This document shows positions 2,028-63,080 of a stretch of 64,000 nt of DNA, one piece after another. Location: contig OX597819.1 in the NCBI GenBank assembly GCA_951406725.2, positions 11,036,001 to 11,100,000 of the forward strand, read 5' to 3'. Under the pieces are notes generated by a model. The model was given only the letters and a program-made list of their open reading frames with translations, was not told the origin of the DNA and made no database searches. The translations under genes and the position numbers were made by a program. Origin of the DNA: Octopus vulgaris (Eukaryota). Positions within the stretch are counted from its first letter, which is position 1. Each line of letters begins with the position of its first letter.

Positions 2028-2286
2028 CTTTATTTAAAGCAGCAGAAAATTCAACAAAACCTGTTACTCTGAGTTTCCCATTGCCGTTCATTGGACAGTT
2101 TTTGCTAGAATACTATTCAGCATAAAACACAATTCTAGCAAAAACTGTCCGATGAACGGCAACGGGAAACTCAGAGTAACAGGTTTTGTTGAATTTTCTG
2201 CTGCTTTAAATAAAGCATATTACTCTACCACTGGTATTTGAGTACTCTTTTTTCCACCTTGTTTCACATTTATGTGTTTACTCCGG
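2028..2286 (+). mobile_element. Fold-back hammerhead element family H1 (Penelope pLTR-like) in (TA)n
   Basis: 84-bp inverted arms 2028-2111 / 2132-2215, 20-nt loop, one-sided tail 2216-2286, (TA)n on both sides. Confidence 0.8.
2141..2187 (+). ncRNA. Minimal type-I hammerhead motif (CCGAUGA core)
   Basis: AAAACTGT-CCGATGA-A CG GCAA CG G-GAAA-CTC A GAG-TA-ACAGGTTTT. Confidence 0.65.
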
Positions 2287-2626
2287 TATATATATATATA
2301 TATATATATATATATACACATACAAATGCATACACATACATATATATTTATATATACAGATATATACTAATATACATGTGTATAAACATGCACATATGGA
2401 TATGTGCATATCTCTATGTATATATGTTTTTCTTTCATTTTCATAACAGTATGAAATATTTCTTATCTTGTTCTTCCATCTTAATCTCTTCTTACTGGAA
2501 GTTTTGGGCCTCTTCTGGAAAGGGCAAGACTTCATAACTTCAAGTATTTTGTAGTATTTTATTTTCTTTATCCAAATCATTTAACTAACAATAACAAGAA
2601 ATTTCCCTAGAATTTTAGTGATATAT

Positions 2627-3060
2627 CATCATCATCATCGTTTAACGTCCACTTTCCATGCTGGCATGGGTTGGACAGTTTGACTGAGGACTGGCGAGCC
2701 AGAAGGCTGCACCAGGTTCCAATCTGATCTGGCAAAGTTTCTACAGCTGGATGCCCTTCTTAATGCCAACCACTCCAAGAGTGTAGTGGGTGCTTTTACG
2801 TGCCGCCAGCACAATGGCCAGTCAGGCGGTACTGGCAACGACCACGCTAAAAGGTGTTTTTTTATGTGCCACCTGCACAGGAGCCAGTCTGGTGGCACTC
2901 ACAATGAACACACTTGAATGTTGCTTTCCACGTGCCAGTATGGTGACGCTGGCAACAATCATGTTCGAATGGTGCTTTTTACGTGCCACCGGTACAGTGG
3001 CCAGTCAGCAGCCCTGGCAACAATCACGCTTGGATGGTGCTTTTAACATTCCACTGGCAT
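2627..3060 (-). mobile_element. 3' UTR fragment of RTE LINE (family D)
   Basis: Matches 62400-62754; (CAT)n tail and ~60-bp internal repeats. Confidence 0.85.
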
Positions 3061-3063
3061 GAA

Positions 3064-3770
3064 TCTATTATATAAAATCCATTCTGTCTGTCTGTGCGTG
3101 TGTCTTCTAGGATCTCGGGGCATCCTCCACCCGATTGCACTCAAATTTGATATGTAGATACCGACGGTATCAGGGCATGTATAAGTCTTGAAAACATTAC
3201 AAAAATCGATTCCAGGTGAGAATGTGATCGATAAAGCTGTTCCCTAGGTTGTTGCTTTTCATAAAAAATCGCCCAAGTTGATTTCCTACATGTTTTATCG
3301 GATAAACCTATTATTGTCCCAGGTATGTTCTCACAAATTCATCATGCTTTTCCATCTAGATTTACCTCCAGCTAACCTATTTGCATGCATCGTTTTTGTC
3401 TTGCTTTTCTTCTGTCAACCTGTACATAACTGCACCTTCCATTTTTTGTTATTTTTGTACAGCTTAAAGGCACATTTCTTTCCTGCCAAGCTTACTGTTT
3501 AAATCATGTTTGTGTTCTTCCAGTCAACAGCCTTATCATTACTGGTGCTTTAAACTCTTCAGTTGCATATTTGTGTGAATAAAATCGTTTTTCTTTGGAA
3601 TAGAAAAAAGTCTATCTTTATTTCTTCATTTGCTGGTGTCCCAAATTTAGGTTAAATCGGTGTTTCTCAAAGGGGAGGCTTATGGGACGGTCAGACAAGT
3701 TGTTTTGAGAAAATTTGGTTTAAATGTTTGACAACCTAGCACCGTCCATTGGACGGGGGCGTTTTGCTCG
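3064..3770 (+). mobile_element. Non-autonomous Helitron
   Basis: 5' A|TCTATTATATAAAA; 3' hairpin CCGTCCA-T-TGGACGG (3742-3756) then CTCG|T (CTAG variant). Confidence 0.65.
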
Positions 3771-3876
3771 TATATAAATAAATATATATATATATATATA
3801 TCAGGTCATCCCATAAGTTCTGTTCCGAATTTTGAATAAAGAAAACAAGTGATCAAATGTTATATTTAATTGAAAT

Positions 3877-4604
3877 TTAATCATCAATGTACTTTCCCTG
3901 ATTATCTATGACTTCCTTCCATCTGTTTACAAGCTTTTTAATTCCATCAATGTAAAACTCTTTTGGTTTCAAAGCAAAGAACTCTGAAATATTGGTGTCG
4001 ACCTCCTCCTGGCTTGCGAAAGTTATGTCCCCCAAATGATTCTGTAAGCTACGAAACAGATGGTAGTCTGAAGGAGCAAGGTTGGGAGAATAAGATGGAT
4101 GAGGAATTTTTTCCCAACCAAGCTCTTCGATCTTCTGTGATGTGATCTTTGCAGTGTGAGGTTGCACATTGTCCAGATGAAACATCACTCCTTTTCGATT
4201 CACTAAAGCGGGTCTTTTTTTCTTCACTCCATCAATTCAGACAATTCATGAGGCACCCATTTGTCAAGTTTAGGAACCTTTCCAAGTTGTTGAAGATGAC
4301 GATGAACAGTTGTATGGTTTGAACTAAGCTTTGTTGCCATTTCTTCAACTGATAATGCAGAATTTTCTTCAAGTAATGCCTCAAGGAGCTTATCATCAAA
4401 CTCAACTGGACGTCCTGTTCAATCTTCATCTTCAAGGCTGAAATCTCCACTTCTGAATTTTGCAAGCCATCTTCTGTAAATTCTTTCATTCAAGCATTCT
4501 TCCCCATAAACTGAGTGTATGTTTCAAGTCACTTCGGCTGCAGAGTTTCCTTTTTTGTACTCATAAAGCATTATGTGCCTTAAATGCTCTTTGGATACTT
4601 CCAT
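3877..4604 (-). pseudogene. Mariner transposase, frameshifted and internally deleted
   Basis: ORF 3877..4227 has FHLDN-x-x-PH and HPSYSPNLAPSDYHLFRSL motifs; N-terminal remnants upstream. Confidence 0.88.
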
Positions 4605-60623: not shown

Positions 60624-60773
60624 TATATATATATATATATATACATACATACAGTAATCCCACAACTGTTATTGTGTTACATTCCAAAAACCCCTGTGAT
60701 AGGTGAAAATCCGCAAAGTAAAAACTACTCTACTGTATGTTTATTTTATTATTTTCATAATTTGTATATATTT

Positions 60774-61093
60774 ATTTAAGAAACACACAAAAGCCGTTTG
60801 ATTCACTTCAACATTTAAGTTTAATTTGTCAAAATATTTTCGTCACTATAAGACCGCGACCTGTTCACTGACAAAAATTCGTGCTGCACGGATGCAGCAC
60901 AGATTTTTGTCTGTGAACAGGTTGCGGTCTTAAAGTGACGAAAATATTTTGATAAATTAAACTTAAATGTTGAAGTGAATAGAAGGCTTTTGTGTGTTTC
61001 TTAAATGGCTTACAAACACCTTCCACGCTGCAATTGTTTTCGTTCCAGCACACGATCTCAGATCAAATCACTCGCTATGCAAGTACATCTCCG
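60774..61093 (+). mobile_element. Fold-back hammerhead element family H8
   Basis: Near-perfect palindrome 60774-61006, tail 61007-61093, TATATATTT on both flanks. Confidence 0.8.
60825..60875 (-). ncRNA. Variant hammerhead motif with G3-C8 core (GUGAACA)
   Basis: Minus strand TTTGTCA-GTGAACA-G GTCGC..GTGAC-GAAA-ATAT-TT-TGACAAA; second copy at 60906-60956 (+). Confidence 0.65.
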
Positions 61094-61159
61094 TAATATA
61101 TATTTATTCTATTATAAAAAACAACACAATGGAGGAAATGACATAAGCTTAAATAATAC

Positions 61160-62754
61160 ACAGAAGAATTCAAAGTAGAGGTTGGGGTCCACCAGGGTTC
61201 AGTACTCAGCCCCCTCCTATTTATCATAGTCCTCCAAGCAATTACGGAGGAATTCAAGACAGGTTGCCCCTGGGAGCTTGCTCTAATTGCTGAGTCACTA
61301 TCAGAACTGGAGGAGAAGTTCCAGGTGTGGAAGGAGGGTTTAGAATCGAGGGGCCTTAGAGTCAACCTAGCTAAAACCAAAGTACTAATAAGTAGGAAGG
61401 TAGACAATCCACAAATGTCTTCAGGAAGATGGCACTGCTCGATCTGTAGAAAAGGTGTAGGTAGAAACTCTATAAGATGTACCCAGTGTAAGCTATGGAC
61501 ACATAAGAGGTGCAGCAATGTCAAAGGTAGGCTAACTGGGAAGATAGTTTTTGTATGTGGCAGATGCTTGGGAGCATTAACCTCCAAAAATCTGCAGAAA
61601 ACAACTTCCGTCACTTTCCAGGGGGAAAAACTAGAAGTAGTTGATAGCTTCCGTTATCTAGGTGACCAAGTCAGTAGTGGGGGTGGGTGCATTGAAAGTG
61701 TAACTGCTAGAATAAGAATAGCCTGGGCAAAGTTTAGGGAGCTCTTACCTCTGCTGGTGACTAAAGGCCTCTCGCTCAGAGTAAAAGGCAGACTGTATGA
61801 TGTATGTGTACGAACAGCCATACTACATGGCAGTGAAACATGGGCCATGACTGCTGAGAACATGCGTAAACTCGTGAGGAATGAAGCCAGAATGCTCCGA
61901 TGGATGTGTAATGTCAGTGTACATACTCGACAGAGCGTTAGTACCTTGAGAGAAATGTTGTACCTAAGAAGCATCAGTTGTGGTGTGCAAGAAAGACGAT
62001 TGCACTGGTATGGTCATGTGGCGAGAATGGATGAAGATAGGTGTGTGAAAAAGTGCCAATCCCTAGCAGTTGAGGGAACCCGTGGAAGAGGTAGACCCAG
62101 GAAAACCTGGGACGAGGTGGTGAAGCACAACCTTCGAACTTTAGGCCTCACTGAGGAAATGACCGGCGACCGAGACCTTTGGAAATATGCTGTACGTGAG
62201 AAGACCAGGCAGGACAAGTGAGCCCAGCCCATTTATGCATGCCTTTCCTCCCTTGGACACAAAGACCTGTTGAGGCAAGTGAAGTCGATATCGAACCTCA
62301 TCCGACGACAGGCACCTATGGCAACCCCCCCTTTGCTTGCGAAAACCTGTTGGGGCAAGTGAAATCGAAATCGAAATCGAAATTGACCAATCCTATGACT
62401 GGCATCCAGCAGATGCCAGGACCCCTGGACTGGTGGTACGTAAAAAGCACTATCCGAATCATGGCCGATGCCAGCGCCGCCTCGACTGGCTTCTGTGCCG
62501 GTGGCACGTAAATTGCACCAATCCGACCGTGGTCGTTGCCAGCCTTGCCTGGCACCTGTGCGGGTGGCACGTAAAAAGCACCCACTACACTCACGGAGTG
62601 GTTGGCATTAGGAAGGGCATCCAGCTGTAGAAACATTGCCAGATAAGACTGGAGCCTGGTGCAGCCTTCTGGCTTCCCAGACCCCCGGTCGAACCATCCA
62701 ACCCATGCTAGCATGGAGAACGGACGTTAAACAATGATGATGATGATGATGATG
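61160..62754 (+). mobile_element. 5'-truncated RTE LINE with PHD-like insert and repeat-containing 3' UTR (source of family D)
   Basis: GVHQGSVLSPLLF; ORF 61325..62221 with C-x2-C...WTHKRC, FRYLG, LHGSETW, RGRGRPRKTW; YADD motif deleted; (TGA)n tail. Confidence 0.92.
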
Positions 62755-62820
62755 AATAAACCGTGATAGGTAAACCACAATATGGTGAGGGATTTCTGTA
62801 TATATATATATGTATGTATA

Positions 62821-63080
62821 GAGTGTTAGAAGTGGGGTAACAGATATTGAATATTGGGAAAAGAGGAAGTCGCCAGAATTTTGGAAAGAGAATTTTTTTA
62901 TTTAGTCATTATTATTAGCACTTCCATTCATTTTTCAAACTTGTCAAATAAAATTTTTTTGTACATTGACAAAAAAAATTTTATATGACAAGTTCAAAAA
63001 ATGAACAAAACTGCTAATAATAATGACTAAATAAAAAAATTCTCTTTCCAAAATTCTGTGACCTCCTTTCTTCTCAATAT
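62821..63080 (-). mobile_element. Fold-back element H9 in (TA)n, no ribozyme visible
   Basis: Arms about 62851-62962 / 62969-63080; short one-sided tail 62821-62850. Confidence 0.65.

Follow-up and report, generated by a model that had tools for sequence, protein, structure and literature searches.

Paired short and tailed 3′ ends in fold-back insertions of Penelope-like elements in the genome of Octopus vulgaris

A 64,000-nucleotide stretch of Octopus vulgaris DNA (assembly GCA_951406725.2, contig OX597819.1, positions 11,036,001 to 11,100,000, forward strand; hereafter the window) raises the question of what its many short, hairpin-like repeats are and how they come to fold back on themselves. 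The window has 37% GC and plentiful TA tracts, and it contains nine short repeat families, each with a 3′ minimal type-I hammerhead ribozyme motif in at least some copies. An initial annotation, made from the letters alone, had read these as a guild of sequence-unrelated, non-autonomous ribozyme elements. Searches of the 2.8-Gb assembly (227 contigs) leave us confident that they are insertions of Penelope-like elements (PLEs). Most of the families that could be traced appear to be 5′-truncated copies of coding elements, and a minority to be non-coding passengers. The elements themselves are not a new class and are largely explained by known PLE biology. What is new here is a rule for their ends, by which a two-armed insertion joins one short and one tailed 3′ end copied from one source, and the footprint of the same kind left by retrozyme-like passengers.

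Fold-back elements of the window

Every family has two fixed 3′ ends, a short one and a tailed one, lying 34-149 nucleotides (nt) apart. Comparison of the window with itself by BLAST gave fold-backs at 2023-2220, 18139-18342, 18873-19755 and 19926-20336 and, in the second half, at 58623-59076, 59531-60024, 60774-61006 and 62851-63080. These eight local inverted repeats match sites listed in the initial annotation, but two further sites differ from its description: the copy at 36393 has no inverted arm, and the copy placed at 10560 really lies at about 10711-11135, with an inversion of only about 16 nt and no TA tract on its left. A TA tract is also absent from the left side of the 60774 element, which had been listed among the elements sitting in TA tracts, and a tenth site, a second copy of family 2028, had been overlooked. 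The features are as follows.

2028..2286, plus strand: two-armed insertion of family 2028; the inverted arm (2028-2111) has the short end, the sense arm (2131-2215) leads into a tail at 2216-2286; flanked by TA tracts on both sides; member of a short subfamily with a fixed 5′ end.
2145..2182, plus strand: minimal type-I hammerhead predicted for family 2028, its C3-G8 core at 2149; stem II of 2 bp capped by a GCAA loop, stem III an odd palindrome, cleavage predicted after 2178; stems III and I the same as in catalogued Hydra ribozymes (by-eye comparison).
10711..11135, plus strand: family 19926, an older copy; inversion of ~16 nt followed by sense arm and tail; core (10874) altered at G5 and predicted inactive.
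18150..18403, plus strand: family 18151, a coding PLE of Hydra type represented by its 3′ end; arms at 18150-18248 (inverted) and 18249-18331 (sense), tail at 18332-18403; truncation falls within the ribozyme core.
18434..19733, minus strand: family 18432, non-coding 559-nt unit; two tandem units with the short end near 18437, then inverted arm 19536-19733 with a 102-nt tail; hammerhead cores at 18670 and 19229.
19787..20328, minus strand: family 19926 (10711/19786), an older coding PLE represented by its 3′ end; tail at 19787-19934, then the sense arm (19935-20118) with an intact core at 20045, and the inverted arm to ~20328.
36393..36630, minus strand: family 36393, 3′ end of a third coding Hydra-type PLE; single-armed, short-ended; core at 36598.
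58523..59076, minus strand: family 58523, a non-coding unit of ~490 nt; a tail is followed by the sense arm, which holds the core (58817), and by the inverted arm at 58969-59069.
59537..60059, plus strand: family 59537; arm 59537-59780 (short end), arm 59799-60019 with tail to 60059; U3-A8 core at 59902, stem II decayed.
60114..60201, plus strand: second window copy of family 2028; ~8-nt inverted arm and tail between TA tracts, no ribozyme.
60774..61095, plus strand: family 60774; arms at 60774-60888 (inverted) and 60891-61037 (sense), the tail reaching 61095; swapped G3-C8 core at -60868 and +60913.
62820..63076, minus strand: family 62821; a tail at 62820-62853 is followed by the sense arm and by the inverted arm (62972-63076); core of the U3-A8 form, here decayed.

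Three families abut between 18107 and 20366, where insertions are nested in one another's TA tracts; elsewhere in the genome several insertions lie within one TA tract (L260:4200-4950).

Coding parents

For each family only the best 40 candidates were scored and 25-30 loci were fetched from the octopus's own genome; the family counts are lower bounds, biased towards copies resembling the query. The suspected connection to PLEs, for which long members joined to PLE open reading frames (ORFs) had been proposed as a check, was borne out for four families (2028, 18151, 36393 and 19926), which run upstream into frames for reverse transcriptase (RT) and a GIY-YIG endonuclease (EN). Locus L256 first revealed the link for family 2028, whose sequence lies about 1 kb downstream of the ORF in all 30 ORF loci fetched. 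A protein search with this parent gave at least 143 matches at 98-100% identity, many with an open frame of 727 amino acids (aa). Its unit measures 3342 nt, and what forms the tail is the beginning of the following tandem unit. This is a very young PLE family (intact example at L318:2114-4243, minus strand), and its recent activity is evident because the arms of most insertions have only 0-2 differences. For family 18151, PLE frame pieces lie upstream in 9 of 30 loci; one of them, L253, runs from a TA tract through a 33-nt inverted arm, a 472-aa RT/GIY-YIG frame, the untranslated region (UTR), ribozyme and tail to a second TA tract. Family 36393 was reached within the 1.5-kb flank by 13 of 30 ORF loci, longer flanks showing further ones, and family 19926 is linked to a PLE ORF in 21 of 30 loci, where only the EN end of the protein was seen.

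The frames (710 aa in L318, a 472-aa piece in L253, others of 745-862 aa) are single ORFs in which a PLE RT is combined with a C-terminal GIY-YIG domain. The motifs RWK, DKT, CxCx5C, CxxC and CxH are all present in the 710-aa protein; L416 and L423 have DKT and the three C motifs, L423 with IKWK in place of RWK, and the 5′-truncated L253 retains the three C motifs. The 710-aa protein matched neither a Pfam family nor a solved structure, and GIY-YIG fell below the Pfam cut-off for the 472-aa piece; homologues carry PF26215/PF28514. Judged by these motifs and by eye against reference proteins, the parents appear to belong to the Hydra clade wherever the protein was checked. The families are unrelated at the DNA level, as the initial annotation had claimed (the longest match between families is 15 nt), but the three long parent proteins are 30-42% identical to one another. 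Families 2028, 18151, 36393 and 19926 are the 5′-truncated 3′ ends of coding PLEs, and truncated copies look non-coding because the 3′ UTRs span 0.2-1.3 kb.

A fifth family, 62821, is likely the 3′ end of a Neptune-type PLE: in L260 and L261 a decayed EN (PF01541, 22.9 bits), seen on translation, lies upstream in the sense direction across a TA tract. A tblastn search with Hydra-type queries found no ORF in 14 extended loci of families 62821 and 59537. PLE pieces beside L311, L213 and L102 were judged to be chance neighbours; that of L311 lies behind a TA tract, and the upstream sequence is unlike that of L310. The PLE frames of L423 and L311 contain asparagine-rich insertions, as reported for rotifer elements (PMC3846280), and the window itself holds a decayed Hydra-type RT piece at 22838-23107, 33% identical to the intact protein.

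Pairing of the two ends

The end rule was examined in 44 loci picked by the ORF of the 2028 parent, hence not by end type. Thirty-three of these insertions have two arms, and in every one of the 33 a short end is matched by a tailed end, an outcome with a chance of about 1e-10 if each arm chose its end independently with a probability of one half. The other 11 are one-armed (9 short, 2 tailed). When the loci fetched for each of the nine families are counted, the short-plus-tailed type makes up 128 of 135 two-armed copies and none is tailed plus tailed. In this larger count, alignments reaching no more than 22 nt beyond the short site were scored as short, since the tails start TA-like; arms broken inside the body were dropped, as was L149, a local duplication, and the near-duplicates L122 and L123 were both included.

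The two arms of one insertion share a single source: the median mismatch between them is 0 over up to 800 nt, as against 1.0% between insertions (30 loci). Their lengths vary, the longer arm being short-ended in 18 of the 33 two-armed insertions and tailed in 12, with equal arms in 3, and the difference within an insertion reaches 6 kb. The arms overlap by 1-24 nt at the junction in 25/33, and 19 of all 77 arms are longer than one unit, running past the ribozyme site. PLE-type 5′ truncation, partial tandems, an inverted 5′ copy and a tail at one end are all present. The targeting of (TA)n claimed in the initial annotation holds for every outer end of the ORF-anchored set (77/77) but varies by family: ends lie at TA in 44/44 cases for 18432, 48/52 for 18151, 46/50 for 2028 and 20/38 for 19926, the background of TA adjacency being 2.8-4.9%.

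Non-autonomous units

The non-coding unit of family 18432 is 559 nt long and contains no frame above 103 aa; its copies are 98-99% identical and arranged in arrays of up to about 15 units; family 58523 is a non-coding unit of about 490 nt in partial tandems. Each unit carries one predicted hammerhead, and no parent UTR matched either family among 462 fetched loci. In the short 2028 subfamily the parent UTR occurs in 0/30 loci, and both arms stop at one shared 5′ point in 14/30. Only these three seem to behave as non-autonomous units. Three members of the short subfamily (L089, L094 and L111) combine an inverted arm with parent-type letters and a sense arm with subfamily letters, and look as if a hairpin master or two templates had been used.

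The end rule extends to family 18432, in which all 22 two-armed insertions are short plus tailed. Units on opposite arms of one insertion differ by 0.36%, those of different insertions by 1.72%, and for 32 variants every unit within an insertion agrees. In two long arrays adjacent units are no closer than distant ones (0.23 versus 0.24%; 1.48 versus 1.41%). These data favour birth of an array as one insertion, with some heterogeneity that would be later or in the template, and the 559-nt footprint is evidence at the sequence level that PLE machinery moves family 18432. Families 18432 and 58523 would work like retrozymes; we call them retrozyme-like and do not file them as members, their size and ribozyme type differing from those of the class. 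The 559-nt unit has older relatives, 70-80% identical, at L068:436-970 and L061:2189-2400.

Hammerhead motifs

An Rfam scan of the window found no hammerhead family at E<=10. A descriptor with the core given in the initial annotation has 3 matches, compared with a mean of 0.03 in 60 block shuffles; a second descriptor has 2, compared with 0.14 (maximum 2) in 200 dinucleotide shuffles, which is weak taken alone. By eye, all conserved core bases are kept at +2149, -18670, -19229, -20045, -36598, -58817, -60868, +60913 and +59902. The claim that most of the elements carry such motifs is right as a reading; the motif recurs in each family, and the core is broken or missing in the copies at 10711, 18151 and 62821. 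Despite the modest enrichment in the window, we find the motifs convincing because of this recurrence, because they always lie on the sense strand, 35-189 nt upstream of the short end, because the 3-8 core pair has alternative forms (a C-G pair in six families, U-A in two others and, in 30/30 copies of family 60774, G-C), and because their layout matches, by eye, the Hydra-clade ribozyme catalogue (PMC8557442 File S2). Position 4 of the core is frequently C.

Copies passing a strict descriptor number 30/30 for 60774, 26/30 for 18151, 18/25 for 36393 and 15/27 for 19926, and are few in 62821 (4/25) and 59537 (3/25); the 0/30 scored by each of 2028, 18432 and 58523 reflects a stem II of 2-3 basal pairs. 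In the 36393 clade, 12 related motifs keep an invariant core but vary by about 30 nt in loop II, and 90.8% of cells are paired, a value matched or exceeded in 16/500 shuffles. A-to-I editing was considered as the origin of core variants and set aside: private changes in 44 loci number 24 for A>G and 24 for T>C, so the strands do not differ. At 59080-59420 the window has a further dispersed repeat with a decayed minimal-hammerhead-like motif, of which an intact-looking version lies at L417:1680.

Origin of the fold-back

In LINE-1 twin priming the second target strand primes a second complementary DNA (cDNA), and joining of the two at microhomology gives a 5′ inversion. The two LINE-1 pieces are largely non-overlapping, whereas those seen here each begin close to the 3′ end and together form an inverted duplication. 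We think it probable, at roughly two chances in three, that the octopus fold-backs also arise by twin priming, with both target strands priming copying of the same RNA; this is favoured over simple fold-back because the arms come from one source and either may be the longer. The endonuclease would nick both strands of the TA-rich target, and two RTs, perhaps as a dimer, would start on the same source RNA, one at each fixed site. They would stop at variable points, after which the two cDNAs would be joined by microhomology; one-armed copies would arise where one RT fails. Arms exceeding one unit would be copied from a template that is circular or multimeric, the circle being made by the hammerhead, as proposed in PMC4209133; that a circular template is used we regard as an even bet. 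The same protein would serve the units of 559 nt and ~490 nt in trans. The PAc PLE fits such a reaction: in vitro it cleaves both strands and extends them, using two internal sites (PMC11167929). In its most general form, which we offer tentatively and hold somewhat below even odds, PLE integration would be an obligately asymmetric, double-primed reaction in which a single complex begins two cDNAs on one circular, ribozyme-processed RNA, one per start site and strand, and the same machine would roll round non-coding ribozyme circles of 490-560 nt, so that the retrozyme arrays of animals are born whole, each in a single PLE-driven event.

The inversion might instead come from self-priming by fold-back, possibly with an antisense template, the tail resulting from staggered endonuclease resolution of a hairpin. 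Such a route, still a PLE one, has been proposed (PMC3846280, PMC8557442); it predicts the identical arms that are seen and one tail per insertion, and palindromic centres do occur, in the equal-armed minority of the ORF-anchored set and in the 14/30 short 2028 copies with a shared stop. We consider it unlikely: self-copying of one cDNA cannot give the class in which the short-ended arm is the longer, arm lengths differ by kilobases, one-armed insertions occur with either end, and the in vitro start sites on sense RNA match the tail ends (PMC11167929). It is similarly doubtful, a little more so, that the 559-nt arrays are satellites, a monomer having been inserted once and then amplified locally by unequal crossover, as suggested for retrozymes in bioRxiv 10.64898/2026.07.22.740005. 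Variants common to subsets of units would suit that history, but in every case a short end on one side and a tailed end on the other, each in a TA tract, bound the array, both arms can be multimeric, and neighbouring units are not the most similar. The guild of non-autonomous ribozyme elements mobilised in trans, as all families were first described, holds for 18432, 58523 and the short 2028 subfamily and may hold for 59537 and 60774; as a general statement it is very improbable, being refuted by the four families that run into coding frames, with a fifth likely to follow, and the long UTRs are what misleads. Miniature inverted-repeat transposable elements (MITEs) or other DNA transposons, with terminal inverted repeats, TA duplication and ribozyme motifs arising by chance, can be practically dismissed, in agreement with the initial annotation. 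They would account for inverted repeats and TA flanks, but the arms range from about 8 nt to kilobases, the ends are asymmetric and not the fixed symmetric termini of MITEs, copies are 5′-truncated and continue into RT/GIY-YIG frames, and the 3-8 core pair takes three forms.

Several observations weigh against the PLE and twin-priming interpretation. The seven exceptions to the end rule comprise 4 copies with a short end and a partial tail, 2 tailed plus partial and 1 short plus short, and families 2028, 18151 and 62821 were anchored on the tailed arm, so that short plus short could not be sampled there. Ends at TA are weakly represented in 60774 (11/30), 36393 (5/16) and 62821 (4/12). Fifteen variants occur in only some units of an 18432 array, which a single clean circle does not explain. 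None of the 77 arms starts at the predicted cut site, so the arms give no sign of cleavage; the fold of the monomer agreed with the hammerhead stems in only 1/7 window motifs, and covariation in the 36393 clade amounts to one compensatory pair, with a score reached in 71/500 shuffles and hence not above them. Assignment of 62821 rests on two decayed loci, while L259, L262 and L264 have other upstream sequence, and families 59537 and 60774 extend upstream by at least 0.4-0.6 kb without a frame. The mechanism, moreover, is one read from insertion footprints.

Other repeats in the window

A 438-nt fold-back of a different abundant repeat, matched by 69 fetched loci, lies at 15060-15497; no TA flanks or ribozyme were seen in it. 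Weak old inverted repeats at 41178-41396 and 30974-31435 have no match among the fetched loci. Open frames of 271-355 aa at 23961-25025, 51558-52370 and 61157-62218 resemble, by eye, fragments of non-LTR (non-long-terminal-repeat) RT.

Relation to known systems

An inverted arm, tail, ribozyme and TA target together constitute the published architecture of PLE insertions (PMC8557442), and the tail "at one end" has been noted (PMC3846280, PMC8557442). The nearest relatives are in the Hydra clade, including the octopus member Hydra-1_Obim (Craig et al. 2021, PMC8557442), a clade known for (TA)n targets, hammerheads and one Repbase member with an inverted 5′ copy. The present elements share its C-terminal GIY-YIG, protein motifs and targets, and a 3′ hammerhead in sense orientation whose stem II has a basal mismatch and whose stem III is an odd palindrome. 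They differ in their longer unit (3342 nt, as against mostly <3 kb), 1-kb UTRs and the abundance of near-identical ORF copies (at least 143); the proteins are related to that of Hydra-1_Obim but, by eye, not the same. No end-pairing count appears in the accessible text of PMC8557442. The minimal PLE hammerheads of Cervera and de la Pena (2014, PMC4209133) likewise include dispersed motifs in truncated PLEs, opposite-strand pairs 100-700 bp apart, a U3-A8 variant and a palindromic helix III with a dimer model; the natural G3-C8 family and the frequent C at position 4 distinguish the octopus motifs.

Metazoan non-LTR retrozymes, for which PLEs have been proposed as mobilisers (PMC7229834, PMC7761336, bioRxiv 10.64898/2026.07.22.740005), are also non-coding tandem units with one type-I hammerhead each. 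The units described here are longer (~490 and 559 nt, published ~170-400 nt), have ribozymes of the PLE type rather than the classical one and bear a PLE insertion footprint at each array. The PAc element, a Poseidon PLE (Frangieh et al. 2024, PMC11167929), resembles the present families in that two internal RT starts define a tail and both strands are cut and extended, in its AT-rich targets and, for PAc, in a protein-assisted ribozyme; it belongs to another clade, its tails are 30-40 nt compared with 34-149 nt here, and the accessible text reports no pairing of two sites within one insertion. Literature searches, whose scope left out most subscription papers, including older Penelope work, found neither a strict end-pairing count nor a model of twin priming in PLEs, and no evidence from footprints concerning retrozyme-like units.

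Implications

The origin of tandem and inverted PLE insertions and of their tail has been named as an open question (PMC8557442), and the mobilising element of animal retrozymes has been left open (PMC7229834, PMC7761336). The octopus genome holds a very young, intact PLE family together with a young non-coding passenger, and their footprints give a sharp rule that is directly testable. For annotation, many of the "unknown hairpin repeats" of this genome can be filed as the 3′ ends of PLEs.

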